Part shown: piece after piece, positions 3,755-39,342 of the stretch
Position numbering within the stretch: position 1 is the stretch's first letter
How the letters are laid out: every line of letters begins with the position of its first letter
Origin: a phage
Direction: 5' to 3' (one strand)
Assembly: GCA_029955215.1 (NCBI GenBank)
Contig: GCA_029955215.1_4351.1
Length of the DNA: 42,897 nt
Notes under the pieces: model-generated
Databases searched by the model: none
Seen by the model: the letters and a program-made list of their open reading frames with translations, nothing else
Told to the model about the DNA's origin: nothing
Made by a program: the position numbers and the translations under genes

Positions 3755-4063
3755 TTGGATAAATTTACTGAAACAGTGACAGGCTGGCTTCTCGCTGCCG
3801 CACTAGCCGGAGGGGTAATCGGACTAAGGCAACATAAGTCCGCTATTTCCGGCCCTATCGACGGATTCTGCTTTATCGCAACTGGCTTCACTTGCGCTGT
3901 ATTTGGCGCACCTCTCGCGGCGCAATGGTTTGGCATTACCGGAGAACGCGAGATAGCTGGCCTGGGCTTCATTATTGCTATTCTCTGGATGCCTATCTAT
4001 TCCCGTCTCTCCGGTATCGTCGCTGGAGAATACATCGCACGTCGAGGAGGCACAGATGAATGA
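3755..4063 (+). CDS. holin-like membrane protein (TTG start, 102 aa)
   Basis: Multiple hydrophobic helices; GGAGGA RBS 3743-3748; directly upstream of endolysin. Confidence 0.55.
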   Translation: MDKFTETVTGWLLAAALAGGVIGLRQHKSAISGPIDGFCFIATGFTCAVFGAPLAAQWFGITGEREIAGLGFIIAILWMPIYSRLSGIVAGEYIARRGGTDE

Positions 4064-4328
4064 GTTATTCTGGTTCGGCGGTATGCTGGCAATTGGAGGC
4101 ACATCGCTGTTTAATGTATACCACCCCAGCGTTGACGACGGGTTATTCGGCCGGGTGCTCTATATCCTGACTGCTATTGTCTGCGCCGCTGGGTGTATCC
4201 ACCTGTTACAGGGCAGCATGTCACCTACGTTGCCGGAGACATTAATCGCATTAGTTGCGCTGCGTCAGGTTCGTCAGGCGTGGCTGTCATACGGAGGACA
4301 TAAGCGTGTCTCGAAACATTTCAGATAA
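4056..4328 (+). CDS. second small membrane protein of lysis cassette (holin/antiholin-like, 90 aa)
   Basis: ATG 4056 after GAGGAGG RBS; two predicted TM segments; ORF track start 3975 is probably too far upstream. Confidence 0.5.
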   Translation: MNELFWFGGMLAIGGTSLFNVYHPSVDDGLFGRVLYILTAIVCAAGCIHLLQGSMSPTLPETLIALVALRQVRQAWLSYGGHKRVSKHFR

Positions 4329-4794
4329 TGGGTTGCATTTTACCGCTGCGTTCGAGGGATTCCGCGGCACTGCGTATCGCGCGACACCAAACGAGAAGTA
4401 CCTGACTATTGGTTACGGAAGTTATGGCCCGCATGTTAAGGTGGGACAGACCATCACGCCTGGTCAAGGCCTCCTGTTACTGAATCGCGATATGGCTAAG
4501 GCCGTAGCTGCGGTTGACGCAGCAGCACACCATTCATTGACACAGGCTCAGTTCGACGCAGTGTGTGACTTGGTTTATAACGCAGGCGCTGGCGTGATTG
4601 CAGCTACTACAGGCACTGGTAAGGCGCTACGCTCAGGCGATATTGCGACGTTGCGGGCTAAGCTGGCACTATTCATCAACCAGAACGGCAAACCATTACT
4701 TGGCCTGCGCCGCCGTACCGCCGGTCGTCTGGCGCTGTTCGACGGTAAACCGTGGCAGGAGGCGGAGGCTATCGGGCGCGCGGTGAAAGGTTGA
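4306..4794 (+). CDS. endolysin, phage lysozyme (GH24, lambda R / P22 gp19-like)
   Basis: TIGYG..., QAQFDAVCDLVYNAG and LRRRTAGRLALF resemble the P22 gp19 / lambda R lysozyme family; GTG 4306 after GGAGGA RBS (start uncertain). Confidence 0.8.
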   Translation: MSRNISDNGLHFTAAFEGFRGTAYRATPNEKYLTIGYGSYGPHVKVGQTITPGQGLLLLNRDMAKAVAAVDAAAHHSLTQAQFDAVCDLVYNAGAGVIAATTGTGKALRSGDIATLRAKLALFINQNGKPLLGLRRRTAGRLALFDGKPWQEAEAIGRAVKG

Positions 4795-11726: not shown

Positions 11727-11752
11727 AAATACCTCCTGTTTAAGTTAACTGA

Positions 11753-11781
11753 ATAGTACCCTATTATATTGGGGTGCGCAA
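11753..11781 (-). promoter_or_regulatory. sigma70-like promoter, class I (TTGCGC-N17-TACTAT) on minus strand
   Basis: Minus-strand reading ttgcgc-accccaatataataggg-tactat; near-identical to 21139-21167 and 163-191. Confidence 0.6.
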
Positions 11782-12100: not shown

Positions 12101-12487
12101 ATGAATCTTAAAGCAACTGTCGTAGCGGGAGCATGTTTCATCATCCTGGCCTACGCACACGGCATATACCAGTACCGCAGCGGCTGGAACGAAGGCCGGG
12201 CGAACCTCGTTTCGCAGCAACAGCAGAAAGCACAGACTGAGCTAGCGAAGAAAACACAACGGCAGCAGCAGGATGAATCAAAGGCCGCAGCCGCTGACAA
12301 CGAAGGCAAGACGAAATCAGAGGTGATTACCCGTGAAGTCGTTAAGTACATTAAAACGCCTGGTCGCAGCGTGTGCACTTTCGACCCTGAGCGCGTGCAG
12401 CTCAAGTCCCGCGCCGTCGCAAACGCCAATTCCATCCCCGGATACGACGATGATGCAGCCGCCGTGCAAACTGGCACCGCCAAGTAG
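12101..12487 (+). CDS. i-spanin (Rz-like)
   Basis: N-terminal TM helix VVAGACFIILAYA, Q/K/A-rich coiled-coil region; overlaps the Rz1-like ORF. Confidence 0.6.
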   Translation: MNLKATVVAGACFIILAYAHGIYQYRSGWNEGRANLVSQQQQKAQTELAKKTQRQQQDESKAAAADNEGKTKSEVITREVVKYIKTPGRSVCTFDPERVQLKSRAVANANSIPGYDDDAAAVQTGTAK

Positions 12488-12596
12488 CGACGCTGACGAG
12501 GATTTGGCTGTCGACGTTCAGAACGCCGAATGCGCACGGCAATTGCGCCTGAAAGTGTTCATGTTGCAGGATTACGTGAGGAATATTCTGGAATAG
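12333..12596 (+). CDS. o-spanin (Rz1-like lipoprotein), overlapping Rz in another frame
   Basis: GTG 12333; lipobox L-S-A-C after hydrophobic signal; proline-rich mature region. Confidence 0.55.
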   Translation: MKSLSTLKRLVAACALSTLSACSSSPAPSQTPIPSPDTTMMQPPCKLAPPSSDADEDLAVDVQNAECARQLRLKVFMLQDYVRNILE

Positions 12597-16503: not shown

Positions 16504-16862
16504 TGAGCACCGATTTCAGTAAACGTATGCAAGGCGTAGGTACGCGCCTGCTAACCAAATTCGGTAGCACGGTATCTCTGGTTCGCGCTGGCTCGAAAGT
16601 GTGGGACGAAGTTCTCGGCGAATACGTCTGGTCTGCGGATGAAGTGTTGCCGTTGAAGGCCGTTCCGGTTCCTGTTAACGCAGGACTGGTAAACGGTACG
16701 ACGATTCAGGCAGGTGACATGATCGTTAAGGCTGATTACAGCGTCGTTCCGAAGATGGAAGACAAGGTGCAATTTGGCGGCGAGCAATGGTCTATCGAAG
16801 CCATTGAGAAGAAGATGGTTAATGATGATGTCGTGGCCTACTTTATCCAGGTGAGAAAATGA
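16503..16862 (+). CDS. head-tail joining protein (putative)
   Basis: ATG 16503 overlaps upstream stop; position. Confidence 0.45.
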   Translation: MSTDFSKRMQGVGTRLLTKFGSTVSLVRAGSKVWDEVLGEYVWSADEVLPLKAVPVPVNAGLVNGTTIQAGDMIVKADYSVVPKMEDKVQFGGEQWSIEAIEKKMVNDDVVAYFIQVRK

Positions 16863-17257
16863 CACCATTTGAACAGTCTATTCAGAATTTTATAAAGAAG
16901 GCCAAAAAGAACCCTGAACTGGTGGTTCGCCAGGTCACGATTAAATTATATTCTCAGATTATAATGGCAAGTCCCGTTAAGACGGGTAGATTCAGGATGA
17001 ATTGGCAGGTCAGTAATAACAAGCCAGCAACGGGTGTTTTAATAGCAGACGACCCTTCCGGGAGCAGAGCTATAGGTCGGATGACAAATTACGTTATATC
17101 ATCTCCTGAGTGGGAAAATTTCTGTTTTACAAATAATTTGCCATATGCGGAAAGGTTAGAATATGGGTACTCACAACAAGCACCTCAAGGCATGGTCCGT
17201 GTGACTGTCGCCAGATTTCAACGTCTACTCAACGAAGCTGCGGCGAGGGCAGATTGA
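16859..17257 (+). CDS. neck protein, HK97 gp10-like (putative)
   Basis: GRFRMNWQ motif region typical of the gp10 family as recalled; AT-rich relative to neighbours. Confidence 0.5.
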   Translation: MTPFEQSIQNFIKKAKKNPELVVRQVTIKLYSQIIMASPVKTGRFRMNWQVSNNKPATGVLIADDPSGSRAIGRMTNYVISSPEWENFCFTNNLPYAERLEYGYSQQAPQGMVRVTVARFQRLLNEAAARAD

Positions 17258-18843: not shown

Positions 18844-18868
18844 AAGGCCCCGAAAGGGGCCTTTTTCT
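18844..18868. terminator. bidirectional rho-independent terminator
   Basis: aaggcccc-gaaa-ggggcctt followed by tttctt; convergent gene ends on both sides. Confidence 0.8.
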
Positions 18869-19280: not shown

Positions 19281-19751
19281 CTACTCATGGTTTTCATGAA
19301 AACCGTATTTACTCTCGGCGGCTTTACGCGCGGCAACCGCTACATCAAAATCGTCGTAAAGCCCTAAATGCACTTGTTTGTAGTTAACTTTTATAAACGC
19401 GCGCCACTTACCCGCGGCTTTGTGGAAACTTACACCTGTAGCCCCGGATTTATTTATCTTTCTCATAGTTTTATTTTTACTGCCCCCTGTATTGTCGGTG
19501 GCGCGTAGATTTTCTATTCTATTGTCTAGCCTGTTATGGTTTATGTGGTCTATTTGAGTTTTCCTGTCTAAGTCGCATTTATTATAAAGACACCATGCTA
19601 TGCGGTGGACATACACTGTTTTACCACCCATACCGCAGCACAGATAGCCTCTTACACCAACCGTACCAACCTCAGCACCAGTAGATATCCTGGTAACCTG
19701 CCCCGTCTCAGGGCAGTATTTAAATTGTTTTGAAACATCAAGATACTTCAT
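19281..19751 (-). CDS. HNH homing endonuclease with AP2-type DNA-binding domain
   Basis: H-N-H region IDHINHNRLDNRIENL; C-terminal GVSFHKAAGKWRAFIKVNYKQVHLGLYDDFDVAVAARKAAE resembles an AP2 domain; AT-rich gene. Confidence 0.8.
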   Translation of the reverse strand: MKYLDVSKQFKYCPETGQVTRISTGAEVGTVGVRGYLCCGMGGKTVYVHRIAWCLYNKCDLDRKTQIDHINHNRLDNRIENLRATDNTGGSKNKTMRKINKSGATGVSFHKAAGKWRAFIKVNYKQVHLGLYDDFDVAVAARKAAESKYGFHENHE

Positions 19752-20916: not shown

Positions 20917-21108
20917 TCACTTCTCGTTAACATTCGAGTTGCACGCCCAGATTAAAATAAATACCCACGGCAGCAGAACCCAACCAAGAAACAGGTTAGC
21001 CATGAATATCGCCAACTTCGCTTTATGGTTACGGAAATATGCAACCAGGAAAGGCGCGAAATAAGCGAGCAGTGCAAACAGAATTAAGGAAACTGGTAAA
21101 CTTGACAT
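20917..21108 (-). CDS. small two-TM membrane protein, superinfection-immunity (Imm)-like
   Basis: YFAPFLVAYFRNH...LGWVLLPWVFILIWA; start at second ATG with aagggg RBS (ORF track start 21123). Confidence 0.5.
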   Translation of the reverse strand: MSSLPVSLILFALLAYFAPFLVAYFRNHKAKLAIFMANLFLGWVLLPWVFILIWACNSNVNEK

Positions 21109-21138
21109 TTTAAACCCCTTCATTGTTGGTGTAAGTGA

Positions 21139-21167
21139 ATAGTACCCTATTATATTGGGGTGTGCAA
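21139..21167 (-). promoter_or_regulatory. sigma70-like promoter, class I (TTGCAC-N17-TACTAT) driving minus-strand cassette
   Basis: Minus-strand reading ttgcac-accccaatataataggg-tactat. Confidence 0.6.
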
Positions 21168-21275
21168 GTAATGTGATAGAATAATTTTGCGCCTAGTGTC
21201 GCACACGAAAAGCGGGTGGTTCCCGTCTGGCGCATTTATCGATAACCTGTAACCTCTTAACCAAAGGATTAAAGA

Positions 21276-21695
21276 ATGAAACTTTCTGATTTTTATTTCG
21301 AAGAGAAAGCACTGGTAGGCAAGAAAATGCCGATTCTGCTGCCGAATGGCGAAGACTCCGGCGAGTGGCTTAATGTTGTAAGCCCTGATGCGGATGCCGC
21401 CGTTAAAGCGGGGCGTGCTTTCATTATCGCGTACCGTCGCGGACTGGCGCGTTTTGAAGAACTGGAAAAAACCGCTAAAGCCTCCGGCGACTATACAGAA
21501 TATAACCTGGCGATTAATGAACTGGCGGAAGACCTCAACCGGCAACTCGCGGCTGAAGTCGTAAACGGCTGGAGCTTCGACGACGAGCCTTTCTCTAAGG
21601 AAGCGTTTAACAAATTGCTCGACCAGTTCAAAGGGCTTGGAACCCAGGTAGCCGCGTTCCATAACGCTGAGCGCAAAGCATTACAGGAAAAGTAG
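21276..21695 (+). CDS. tail assembly chaperone (putative)
   Basis: Position immediately upstream of tape measure; acidic 139-aa protein. Confidence 0.5.
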   Translation: MKLSDFYFEEKALVGKKMPILLPNGEDSGEWLNVVSPDADAAVKAGRAFIIAYRRGLARFEELEKTAKASGDYTEYNLAINELAEDLNRQLAAEVVNGWSFDDEPFSKEAFNKLLDQFKGLGTQVAAFHNAERKALQEK

Positions 21696-21727
21696 ACGCG
21701 CTGTACAGGTTCGCCACCTACGAGTTT

Positions 21728-22060
21728 GTGGATAAGCATAAAATCAGAGAGTTTGATTCTATAGCTGACGGACATGAACAGGCGCTTATCGCGATGGGTG
21801 TAATCGATAAGAAAAAACGTGCAGCGCGACGGGGTGGGCCAGAATGCCCGCCCCTTTTCATATCCACCTTTGAGACGTATTGCGACATTAAGTTTACGCG
21901 ACACGTGCGCGAGGACGCTGTAGTATTGTTTGCAAGAGAATCCGTTACGTGGCAAGACCTGAAAGCCTATCTCGACGTTACACAAAAACAGCTTAGCCTG
22001 TTCGAGATAGACATTATCATGGGCTTAGAAGCAATCTTTGAAGGTAGAAATAATGGCTGA
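21728..22060 (+). CDS. hypothetical protein upstream of tape measure (start uncertain)
   Basis: GTG-initiated ORF; no frameshift connection to 21276-21695 found. Confidence 0.35.
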   Translation: MDKHKIREFDSIADGHEQALIAMGVIDKKKRAARRGGPECPPLFISTFETYCDIKFTRHVREDAVVLFARESVTWQDLKAYLDVTQKQLSLFEIDIIMGLEAIFEGRNNG

Positions 22061-24323
22061 TATCGCTAGCTTGATAGTACGAGTATCCGCAACCGGCGTC
22101 GATAAAGTCACATCACAACTGAACGGGCTTACTAAAGCCGCAGGCGCTGCGGCTGCCGCCGTTGTCAGCCTGGAAACCGCTAAGCAGGTGTTCAGTGCGC
22201 TGGTGGACTCCCAGCGAAACTTCGATAAGCTGAACTCCGGCCTCATCACAATGACCGGGAGTGCTGAGAACGCGGCTAAGGCTTTCAGCGTCCTGCAACA
22301 GTTCGCGAAAGAAACCCCGTACGGCCTCAACCAGGCGGTGGAAGGCTTTACTAAACTTGTAGCCCTCGGCCTGAACCCCAGCAAAGAGGCGTTAATCTCC
22401 TACGGCAACACCGCCGCTGCGATGGGTAAAGACCTTAATCAGATGATTGAGGCCGTGGCGGACGCCAGTACATTTGAATTTGAGCGACTGAAAGAGTTCG
22501 GTATTAAGTCTTCCCAACAGGCAGATACCGTTTCGTTCACGTTCCGCGGCGTAACGACCACAGTTAAGAAGAACTCCGAAGAAATTCAGAAATACCTGCT
22601 AAACATCGGTAACACTGATTTCGCCGGGGCGATGGAAACGCGTTCGAAAACCCTTGACGGGCAGTTATCTAGCCTCGCGGACTCCTTTGACGGCCTTGTA
22701 CTTGCGGTGGCGCAATCAGGTTTCGGCGACGCCGTAGGTGAGCAAGCTGCGACAGCGGAAGATGCCATCACGGCCCTAACCGATGCCATCGCGTCTAATG
22801 AGATAGCAGCCACGCTCCAGGATTGGGTGACACTGTTCAATGAATCGTTCAAGTTTATTTCTGACGCTTTGAACGATCTGGCATACGACACCGAGGACAA
22901 ATCCGTGGATATGTCCGACTCGCTGGGGACTATCCCGGACGCTATTCGTGAGTGGTTGCCTGACATTCAGCAGACATTCCACGAGGTTATTGCGTGGTTC
23001 CAGCGCATTGACGATTACGCGGTCGCGTTAGGCCAGACCCTCGCCGACGTGTTCGACCCGAGCAAAACGGCAGCGCTAACATTTAAAAACCTGACCGCAG
23101 AGGCCGACGCCGCATACGCCGCCAGCATAAAACGCGCAGAGGCCGAATCACAGGCTATCACCAACAGGTCTAAGCAGCGTAAGAAAGAAATTGAGGAACA
23201 GCGCAAGCAGTATGACGAGCGCAAGAAGCAAGAAATTGACTTAGCCAGCCTTGTTAATAAAAAGAGCGGAAATGGTGGAACCGGAAATACCAACGACAAA
23301 GACGCGAAAGCCGCCGCTAAGAAAGCGGAGCAATTGCGTAAACAGGCCCAGGATTATCTCGACACTTTGGCCCGTCAGAACAACGACGAATTAAAGGCTA
23401 TTGACGCACAGGAACAGCAGAAACTGGCTAAGGCAAAAGAGTTCTACAACCAGGGCGCGTTGGCTCTGAAAGAATACGAGCAAGCAAAAACGGCTATCGT
23501 CCTCGAAGCCGGACAAGCACGGCAGGAAGAGCTGGATAAGCGAGAGAAAGAACGGCAGGAAAAGCAGCAGAAAGGTGAAGACTTCATGGCTCAGATTATG
23601 GGTCAGAATGCCGCCGAGCTTGAGCTTCTGGAAATTCAGGAACAACAAAAACTGGACGTTGCGGACCGATACCGCGAACAGAACCTTATTAATGAGGAGC
23701 AGTACCAGGCTGCGGTTAATGCCATAAATGACCAATATGCTTTGAAGCGCGCCAACGCTACAGGTAACGCTTTCGGGATGATGGCGGATAACATGAAGGC
23801 CTCACTAGGGGAGGCGTCGTCCGCGTACAAAGCATTCGCTATTGCTCAGGCCACAATCGCCACATACACCTCCGCTATTGAGGCTTATAAATCAGCGTCC
23901 GCTATCCCCGTGATTGGCTGGGTTATGGGGCCAATTGCCGCCGCCGCCGCCGTAGCCGCCGGTATGGCTAACATAGGTAAGATTCGTTCGGCTCGTGAAC
24001 AGGGTGGTCAATTATCCGCGGGCCAGATGTCCACCATCGCTGAACGCGGTAAACCGGAGGTTATCATGCCTGCGGGGGCATCGCGTGTGCGCACCGCGCA
24101 GCAGATGAAAGAGATTATGGGGCAAAACGGCGGAAACTCCGGCGGTGACAGCGTGACAATTGTCAACAACACCACCGGGCGAGTTGATTCTGCGGTAACA
24201 GAACGTGATGACGAAGGGCGTTTACGTATTATAATCAGTGAAACAGTATCGGCGGCGTTACAGGACAGCAACAGCGCAATCTCTAAGTCACGCCGTGCTA
24301 CACGAAACCAGCCGGGGTATTAA
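22053..24323 (+). CDS. tape measure protein
   Basis: 756 aa, long coiled-coil Ala/Gln/Glu/Lys-rich stretches, hydrophobic GWVMGPIAAAAAVAAGM segment. Confidence 0.85.
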   Translation: MADIASLIVRVSATGVDKVTSQLNGLTKAAGAAAAAVVSLETAKQVFSALVDSQRNFDKLNSGLITMTGSAENAAKAFSVLQQFAKETPYGLNQAVEGFTKLVALGLNPSKEALISYGNTAAAMGKDLNQMIEAVADASTFEFERLKEFGIKSSQQADTVSFTFRGVTTTVKKNSEEIQKYLLNIGNTDFAGAMETRSKTLDGQLSSLADSFDGLVLAVAQSGFGDAVGEQAATAEDAITALTDAIASNEIAATLQDWVTLFNESFKFISDALNDLAYDTEDKSVDMSDSLGTIPDAIREWLPDIQQTFHEVIAWFQRIDDYAVALGQTLADVFDPSKTAALTFKNLTAEADAAYAASIKRAEAESQAITNRSKQRKKEIEEQRKQYDERKKQEIDLASLVNKKSGNGGTGNTNDKDAKAAAKKAEQLRKQAQDYLDTLARQNNDELKAIDAQEQQKLAKAKEFYNQGALALKEYEQAKTAIVLEAGQARQEELDKREKERQEKQQKGEDFMAQIMGQNAAELELLEIQEQQKLDVADRYREQNLINEEQYQAAVNAINDQYALKRANATGNAFGMMADNMKASLGEASSAYKAFAIAQATIATYTSAIEAYKSASAIPVIGWVMGPIAAAAAVAAGMANIGKIRSAREQGGQLSAGQMSTIAERGKPEVIMPAGASRVRTAQQMKEIMGQNGGNSGGDSVTIVNNTTGRVDSAVTERDDEGRLRIIISETVSAALQDSNSAISKSRRATRNQPGY

Positions 24324-32801: not shown

Positions 32802-33086
32802 TTAACTATAATAGTTCACTATTAGGTCGTCAACCTCTTCTTTTGTTCCTACTACAAAAACATTTGCGCCACGTTTACGAAGCCGTTTGTGCTCCCGCAA
32901 CTGATGGTCCTCCGGTTCCGTGTTTTCATCCTTCTTCACCTCTACAAACCATATCACTCCTCCTGGAAGGGCGACTAACAGGTCAGGCGCTCCGTTTCTA
33001 CCCTCGTACGACAGCTTACGAACGAGGCCGCCAATAGCCTCGAATCGGTCTTTTGCGTATTTCTGTATTTTGCCTTCCGGGGTCAT
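32802..33086 (-). CDS. VRR-NUC domain nuclease
   Basis: PDLLVALPGGVIWFVEVK (D...E-x-K) ; start at ATG 33086 (ORF track TTG 33101). Confidence 0.65.
   Translation of the reverse strand: MTPEGKIQKYAKDRFEAIGGLVRKLSYEGRNGAPDLLVALPGGVIWFVEVKKDENTEPEDHQLREHKRLRKRGANVFVVGTKEEVDDLIVNYYS
32805..32833 (-). promoter_or_regulatory. sigma70-like promoter, class II (TTGACG-N17-TATAGT) on minus strand
   Basis: Minus-strand reading ttgacg-acctaatagtgaactat-tatagt; contains AATAG-N4-CTATT core. Confidence 0.6.
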
Positions 33087-36388: not shown

Positions 36389-36417
36389 ACTATAATAGCA
36401 AACTATTCAGGTGTCAA
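36389..36417 (-). promoter_or_regulatory. sigma70-like promoter, class II (TTGACA-N17-TATAGT) on minus strand
   Basis: Minus-strand reading ttgaca-cctgaatagtttgctat-tatagt; near-consensus. Confidence 0.7.
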
Positions 36418-39312: not shown

Positions 39313-39342
39313 ACTATAATAGCGAACTATTCACGTTGTCAA
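39313..39342 (-). promoter_or_regulatory. sigma70-like promoter, class II (TTGACA-N18-TATAGT) on minus strand
   Basis: Minus-strand reading ttgaca-acgtgaatagttcgctat-tatagt. Confidence 0.6.

Follow-up and report, generated by a model that had tools for sequence, protein, structure and literature searches.

The first gene of an isolated leftward cassette in a virulent Kagunavirus encodes a member of the T4 Imm family that probably excludes related phages

Two small exclusion proteins of virulent E. coli siphoviruses, Cor of phage T1 and Llp of phage T5, are lipoproteins that inactivate the outer-membrane receptor. At the inner membrane, HK97 gp15 and P22 SieA, both expressed from prophages, are small phage-encoded proteins for which a block of DNA translocation past the adsorption step has been proposed or shown. 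A preprint on Imm of phage T4 cites HK97 gp15 and further entry blocks at the inner membrane in which the tape measure is involved (bioRxiv 10.64898/2026.03.06.709160). T4 Imm is described there as one N-terminal helix together with a three-helix hydrophobic core. It excludes alone from a plasmid and co-purifies with the tape measure protein gp29, whose helical-bundle domain is the contact seen by cryo-EM, and exclusion is weakened by the substitutions R33A and W50A (bioRxiv 10.64898/2026.03.06.709160).

A relative of T4 Imm is also present in the Guernseyvirinae, where a Jerseyvirus orthologue was placed in phrog_1039 along with T4 Imm in a study on Salmonella phages (PMC9409062). The same gene is represented by K1G gp23 ('immunity to superinfection'), Bas74_0023, vB_SenS-Ent1 gp24 and SeF1 Gp_027 (PMC9409062), and is in all cases found between the phosphoesterase and the tail chaperone genes, in the position and orientation described below. 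The label 'superinfection immunity protein' is used in the records of K1G, Bas74, K1ind1, fTaEco01 and many other phages. The literature that we found on the Guernseyvirinae gene consists of annotation, with no data on exclusion or DNA entry.

Here, we analysed this locus in a phage DNA of 42,897 nt (GenBank assembly GCA_029955215.1, contig GCA_029955215.1_4351.1; hereafter the window), which belongs to a virulent siphovirus of E. coli of the genus Kagunavirus, subfamily Guernseyvirinae. The closest genome is that of Escherichia phage vB_EcoS-Ro145c2YLVW, with 96% identity across 89% of the first 25 kb of the window. Around the gene studied here the identity rises to 99.8%, both to Ro145c2YLVW and to Ro145clw, and in the records of these two phages the gene is labelled 'hypothetical protein'. 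The window protein is 100% identical to that of Bas74 and of phage 26/ZCEC5, 97% identical to that of K1ind3 and 63-77% identical to the Jerseyvirus orthologues. Reading the gene as one for superinfection immunity is thus correct but ordinary, as it is already annotated in this way in close relatives. Elsewhere in the window, a 132-aa neck or tail-completion gene (16859-17257, plus strand) showed about 58-60% identity in nearly all of 36 relatives and 98% identity in L045 only; given this near-unique match, the window carries a rare allele of that gene.

The open reading frame is located on the minus strand, which the initial annotation had not given, and its translation from an ATG start yields a protein of 63 aa, MSSLPVSLILFALLAYFAPFLVAYFRNHKAKLAIFMANLFLGWVLLPWVFILIWACNSNVNEK. 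All motifs quoted earlier were recovered, namely YFAP (residues 16-19), RNH (26-28), LGW (41-43) and LIWA (52-55). An alternative in-frame ATG at 21123, 15 nt further upstream, would give 68 aa, as in the open reading frame list and in the Bas74 record. We disfavour this start because the preferred ATG is preceded at 6 nt by AAGGGG, because the upstream ATG is lost and replaced by a stop in three relatives (L007, L017 and L019), and because the Jerseyvirus orthologues start at the Met equivalent to the downstream ATG. An alignment of the upstream regions showed that the position of the Shine-Dalgarno sequence is conserved across relatives as AAGG, CAGG or TGAGG. By direct reading, and unlike Cor and Llp, the protein has neither a signal peptide nor a lipobox, its sole cysteine being C56.

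Table 1 Positions of imm, its neighbours and the predicted regulatory elements. Coordinates are those of the window unless another locus is named.
Feature	Position	Strand	Remarks
imm-like CDS	20917..21108	(-)	63 aa plus TGA stop, 192 nt; PF14373 (Imm_superinfect) member
Imm residues 1-25	21034-21108	(-)	type co-segregates with the chaperone/tape-measure type (21276-24323)
Shine-Dalgarno AAGGGG	21115..21120	(-)	6 nt before the ATG at 21108; read from sequence
Predicted sigma-70-like promoter, class I	21139..21167	(-)	-35 TTGCAC (21167-21162), 17-nt spacer, -10 TACTAT (21144-21139)
Class I promoter copies	179 (+), 1778 (+), 11752 (-), 21138 (-; imm)		near-identical 40-nt repeats
Second promoter-like match, ATCACA-N17-TATAAT	21149..21177	(-)	overlapping; 10/12 consensus matches; Kagunavirus only
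Palindrome AATAG-N4-CTATT	21138..21151		overlaps the -10 of the imm promoter
Exact palindromes	179-192, 1778-1791, 11752-11765, 21138-21151, 32810-32823, 36394-36407, 39318-39331		
One-mismatch palindromes	4907, 11843, 39363		
Metallophosphoesterase, calcineurin-like, 376 aa	19748..20878	(-)	38 nt downstream of imm; 'DNA repair exonuclease', PHROG 704
HNH/AP2 endonuclease	19281..19751	(-)	within the cassette
Last small ORF of the cassette, 76-97 aa	18974..19267	(-)	PHROG 2452
GC-rich bidirectional hairpin terminator	18844..18863		closes the tail-tube gene (+) and the leftward cassette (-)
Tail assembly chaperones G and frameshift extension G-T	21276..22060	(+)	divergently transcribed from imm
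Tape measure protein, 761 aa	22038..24323	(+)	one hydrophobic segment, aa 620-647
108-aa protein	L091 2758-3084 (K1H gp20); L092 2688-3014 (Bas70_0024)		position equivalent to window 20917-21108

The initial annotation had likened the protein to the superinfection immunity family by a sequence pattern, and a profile search bore this out. The protein scored 48.6 bits on Pfam PF14373 (Imm_superinfect), well above the gathering threshold of 27.9 (E 7.5e-13, positions 2-42 of the 42 profile positions), and matched PHROG 1039, 'immunity to superinfection', with an E-value of 1.1e-22. DUF3302 (PF11742) reached 18.5 bits, under its cut-off of 32, and a search of NCBIfam returned a noise match only. 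At E <= 0.01, none of the PADLOC anti-phage defence models was hit by Imm, by the phosphoesterase or by the small ORF at the end of the cassette.

For a direct comparison, T4 imm was translated from NC_000866 (NP_049660, 83 aa). T4 Imm, which scores 58.2 bits on PF14373, shares both this family and PHROG 1039 with the window protein, and both are small inner-membrane proteins, by prediction for the window, of virulent phages. BLASTP aligned the two over 54 residues without a gap (26% identity, E 8e-10). Common to both are Y16, P19, R26 (T4 R33), W43 (T4 W50), W48 and W54, and R26 and W43, the counterparts of the two T4 residues named above, are invariant in a four-sequence alignment of T4 Imm, the window protein (type A) and types B and C. 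In a family alignment of 44 sequences, W43 is nearly invariant. The window protein is 20 residues shorter than T4 Imm, with no counterpart to its first 7 residues or to its charged C-terminal tail of 13 residues. Their surroundings also differ: the window gene adjoins the tail chaperone and tape-measure genes, whereas T4 imm lies beside genes 42 and 43.

A Kyte-Doolittle hydropathy plot showed two hydrophobic stretches (residues ~4-25 and 32-56) that are split by the basic loop R26-N-H-K-A-K31. The two transmembrane helices predicted earlier are a simplification, since the AlphaFold2 model (44-sequence alignment, mean pLDDT 90.5) contains four short helices (residues 3-16, 18-25, 31-41 and 45-57), of which the third and fourth are joined by a loop that carries W43. 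This predicted arrangement fits the N-terminal helix and three-helix core described for T4 Imm in the preprint. A Foldseek search in BFVD gave five matches, all five annotated as superinfection immunity proteins, with TM-scores of 0.68-0.75 and E-values of only 0.03-0.16, which are weak because the protein is so small. No structure of the family was retrieved by a PDB sequence search with the family profile, where only spurious photosystem peptides appeared (E >= 0.27). The profile matches, the direct alignment with T4 Imm, the conservation of functional residues and the predicted fold together place the protein clearly in the Imm family.

With only 63 codons and a 'hypothetical protein' label in its closest genomes, Ro145clw and Ro145c2YLVW, the frame might be suspected to be a chance occurrence in a non-coding spacer. 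Its distribution and its pattern of conservation refute this, so that practically nothing remains in favour of a chance frame. A tblastn search with Imm recovered 366 phage records in GenBank, the majority of them jerseyviruses of Salmonella and kagunaviruses of E. coli; imm is present in 36 related loci from IMG/VR and 11 metagenome loci, and occupies the same position in Kagunavirus and Jerseyvirus genomes. A word-indexed protein search found 9 clusters, and a profile built from four sequences found 47. Nei-Gojobori counts were made on 32 distinct coding sequences among the 36 relatives and the window. Within each sequence type, dN/dS was 0.05-0.07. For the C-terminal half including the loop, values inside a type were 0.01-0.06 and the comparison of type A with type B gave 0.02, at a synonymous divergence of 0.3-0.8 in that half. 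A dN/dS of about 0.05 across 32 distinct sequences, the Pfam E-value and the conserved start codon and Shine-Dalgarno sequence all argue against a chance frame, and imm is a genuine gene under strong purifying selection.

A small protein with two hydrophobic stretches could also be a holin or an antiholin-like lysis protein, and one paper loosely calls the orthologue 'involved in cell lysis' (PMC12645636). The window does, however, encode two holins, an endolysin and spanins elsewhere (3755-4794 and 12101-12596), and the protein matched no holin family in Pfam or PHROGs. Holins typically have a charged C-terminal tail, whereas the tail read directly from the window protein, CNSNVNEK, is short and nearly uncharged. 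A role as a lysis protein therefore appears extremely unlikely.

The gene opens a leftward cassette of four genes, imm, the phosphoesterase, the HNH/AP2 endonuclease and a small ORF, which is opposed to the surrounding late genes and is set between the tail-tube gene and the tail-chaperone/tape-measure genes. The same arrangement is found in K1G and in the Jerseyvirus vB_SenS-Ent1, for which a terminator equivalent to that at the end of the window cassette is annotated. On the far side of the spacer, the two chaperone pieces (21276-21695 and 21728-22060, plus strand) are arranged as in K1G, whose record joins them by a programmed frameshift. Within the cassette, the HNH/AP2 gene (19281-19751) is absent from most relatives or only about 40% similar; K1G and K1H carry polynucleotide kinase and ATP-binding genes at this position, and Bas74 carries no gene. 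The HNH/AP2 gene is probably a mobile homing-endonuclease insertion.

As the leftward unit is isolated among genes of opposite direction, it needs its own promoter within the 167-nt spacer 21109-21275. A putative sigma-70-like promoter, TTGCAC-N17-TACTAT, is located 31 nt upstream of the imm ATG and has 7/12 matches to the consensus; an alignment of 32 distinct upstream regions showed that it reads TTGCAT-N17-TATTAT in Jerseyvirus. Four sites in the window share about 40 near-identical nucleotides, TTGCAC-N17-TACTATTCAcTTA, and each lies 25-35 nt before a start codon. No conserved ORF was found between this promoter and imm. As the promoter is conserved in Jerseyvirus and repeated at three other sites of the window, the earlier view that imm is the first gene after the cassette promoter is well supported, the promoter itself being predicted. 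The authors of the fBC-Eco01 genome likewise detected the same motif by PHIRE, in seven copies, and annotated a 'promoter' at the equivalent site. The best match in a consensus scan was the overlapping ATCACA-N17-TATAAT, which we set aside because it is not conserved in Jerseyvirus, whereas TTGCAC-N17-TACTAT is both conserved and repeated.

The -10 region of the imm promoter is overlapped by the palindrome AATAG-N4-CTATT. In the window, this palindrome occurs 7 times exactly and 10 times when one mismatch or less is allowed, compared to 1.13 expected (about 9-fold), and none of 100 shuffled sequences reached 10. It appears in the context of two promoter-like classes, TTGCAC-N17-TACTAT and TTGACA-N17/18-TATAGT, the latter with the palindrome in the spacer. 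The palindrome is possibly a shared operator or a promoter signature. A published genome paper called the motif a 'phage RNA polymerase promoter'; the well-annotated relative Bas74 has no RNA polymerase gene listed.

The spacer between imm and the chaperone gene also contains an element at about 21212-21234 (plus strand GCGGGTGGTTCCCGTCTGGCGCA) that is almost invariant across Kagunavirus and Jerseyvirus and, on the minus strand, reads as a short hairpin followed by TTTT. It could be an insulator of the imm promoter or a part of the late promoter of the tail genes. We do not regard Bas74_0024, a small ORF that the Bas74 record places between promoter region and chaperone gene, as a real gene, because the indels of this region among relatives are not multiples of three.

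The initial annotation had expected imm to be expressed early and strongly. Two of the other class I promoters, at 179 and 1778, lie at the head of a rightward series of small ORFs located before the holin genes, and the shared promoter class suggests that imm is co-regulated with such clusters of small ORFs, which we assume to be early genes. In the transcriptome of phage K1B4 (0-120 min), the imm orthologue is not among the 4 'early' genes, and is instead one of 11 genes peaking after 100 min (PMC12645636). This latest-peaking class also holds the DNA polymerase and methyltransferases and was kept apart from the structural genes (PMC12645636). The classification is coarse and hard to interpret, as it counts the DNA polymerase as late, and the supplementary files of the paper contain no per-gene expression values for the phage. 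The K1B4 data are therefore weak evidence against an early expression of imm; they are also evidence that imm is not co-expressed with the surrounding tail genes. Going by the predicted promoter, the cassette would be transcribed in the leftward direction, with imm as its first gene, from a host-type promoter of its own and a predicted start site near 21132.

Next to imm lies the phosphoesterase gene, and the two might act as a pair, with Imm as the membrane partner of a metallophosphoesterase/nuclease, for which it would retain or mark the incoming DNA at the membrane for destruction. Such a pair would be a two-part analogue of SNIPE, a nuclease located at the membrane that acts on DNA while it is being injected and is associated with tape measure proteins (PMC13190303). 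The two genes are indeed neighbours, 38 nt apart and in the same orientation, and the pair is kept in both Kagunavirus and Jerseyvirus. In K1H and Bas70, however, the gene in front of this phosphoesterase (92-94% identical) encodes a secreted 108-aa protein instead of Imm; being equally conserved in phages that lack imm, the phosphoesterase does not need Imm. Moreover, T4 Imm acts alone from a plasmid (bioRxiv 10.64898/2026.03.06.709160), and the phosphoesterase had no PADLOC match and belongs to PHROG 704, 'DNA repair exonuclease'. We give this pairing little credence.

Taken together, our findings make it fairly probable that the gene is the imm of a virulent Kagunavirus, encoding an inner-membrane protein of the T4 family that blocks the DNA entry of later related phages. 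The minimal 63-aa protein would insert into the cytoplasmic membrane of the infected cell, in a predicted topology with the R-N-H-K-A-K loop on the cytoplasmic side and the N-terminus on the periplasmic side. In this membrane, it would keep the DNA of later-arriving phages of the same or a related kind from crossing. It would most likely do so in the way that has been reported for T4 Imm, by interfering with the tape measure protein that inserts into the membrane. By analogy to T4, from which alone it is derived, exclusion would probably consist in stopping the DNA of related phages from entering by way of the tape measure. Also by the T4 precedent, the presumed phenotype would be expected against the phage's own kind rather than against 'unrelated phages', as had been proposed earlier. 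HK97 gp15 and P22 SieA would be analogous in mechanism only, belonging to other protein families and being expressed from prophages, whereas imm resides in a virulent phage. The window tape measure has a hydrophobic segment (aa 620-647), as has T4 gp29. However, the window phage is a siphovirus and BLASTP found no similarity between its tape measure and gp29 (E = 3), so that the target of T4 Imm is not transferable by homology and the tape measure remains a putative target.

The protein may alternatively be a true PF14373 member that has a different job in a siphophage and does not exclude phage DNA, for example protecting the membrane from many adsorbing particles, tuning lysis timing or acting on host membrane proteins. 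The exclusion function was shown for T4 only, whose tail and tape measure are unrelated in sequence. In addition, the family extends to long, probably bacterial contigs, such as that of P0040 on a 511-kb contig, so that the domain may serve functions other than phage exclusion. Of 117 Kagunavirus-like GenBank records, about 34 are without imm and have an unrelated gene, for a secreted protein, in its place, which makes imm dispensable, and the K1B4 data place the orthologue late (PMC12645636). On the other hand, the residues required for T4 exclusion are conserved, and the strongest constraint in Imm falls on the loop and the C-terminal core, the part that contacts the tape measure in T4 (bioRxiv 10.64898/2026.03.06.709160). 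A literature search found no evidence for another role. We therefore consider a different job for the protein credible though unlikely, and favour exclusion of related phages.

The Kagunavirus proteins occur in two forms that are near-identical in the C-terminal half and unrelated in residues 1-25. Type A is that of the window, and type B has the sequence MTGITMFFLIIIVLVYFIPFLVAHM. Synonymous divergence is saturated only in the N-terminal part, which places a breakpoint near codon 26. We compared the A and B types with the types of the neighbouring chaperone and tape-measure genes across the loci L042-L065 and L080-L086. At the chaperone and tape-measure genes, members of type 1 share about 90-99% identity with the window, whereas for type 2 the identity is about 52-58% with the window and 78-79% with Jerseyvirus. 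Bas74 is an example with Imm A, Golestan and XY1-type phages are examples with Imm B. In GenBank, Imm A is accompanied by a type 1 chaperone in 41 records and by type 2 in 4, and Imm B by type 1 in 2 (one phage deposited twice) and by type 2 in 36 (Fisher p = 1e-16, uncorrected for shared ancestry or duplicate records). UTEC10, HSE2, EcoPhCCP1, LM02P1 and fEg-Eco19 are natural recombinants. Counting all 76 kagunavirus records that match only in the intergenic core as 'Imm-A plus type-1 chaperone' was rejected, as the reciprocal search gave 41 and about 34 lack imm. Two loci with type A, L047 and L080, carry a longer tape measure, of 815 aa, in which an unrelated Ala/Thr-rich sequence stands in place of the C-terminal part with its hydrophobic segment.

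In the approximately 34 records lacking imm, the class I promoter precedes the gene of a signal-peptide protein of 108 aa, which belongs to PHROG 14165 and matched no Pfam family, and the chaperone/tape-measure genes are of a third type. The PHROG 14165 protein was found in 99 phage records, of which about 34 are kagunaviruses and 64 Salmonella phages, and may be a non-homologous alternative exclusion factor. The three haplotypes share about 95% identity in the 180-nt intergenic region with the promoter, and 90-95% in the phosphoesterase gene. The haplotype split is not reflected in the alleles of the tail-tube gene or of the genes located past the tape measure, which reassort freely. The three allelic forms of the slot gene, each with its own chaperone/tape-measure type, may be a new observation.

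One reading of this linkage is that the first position of the cassette is an 'exclusion slot' whose occupant is matched to the tape measure of the phage itself. We regard this as doubtful at best. Adjacency alone may explain the linkage, and the hydrophobic segment of the tape measure is the same across types, which counts against a simple version of such matching. If co-adaptation were true, the N-terminal helix of Imm would be the specificity determinant for the cognate tape measure or chaperone, and the secreted 108-aa protein would be a non-homologous periplasmic exclusion factor. A comparison with colicin immunity has been drawn for T4 Imm (bioRxiv 10.64898/2026.03.06.709160).

For imm as such, our analysis changes little: it confirms the existing annotation in this group and provides a correction to the label 'hypothetical protein' of the two closest records. 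Phage cocktails make use of kagunaviruses and jerseyviruses, and an Imm-type gene bears on cocktail design, since it predicts that a cell infected by one member excludes related members; the same point has been raised by others (PMC9409062). The linkage between the slot gene and the tape measure provides a cheap natural experiment on whether proteins of the Imm family recognize specific tape measures.
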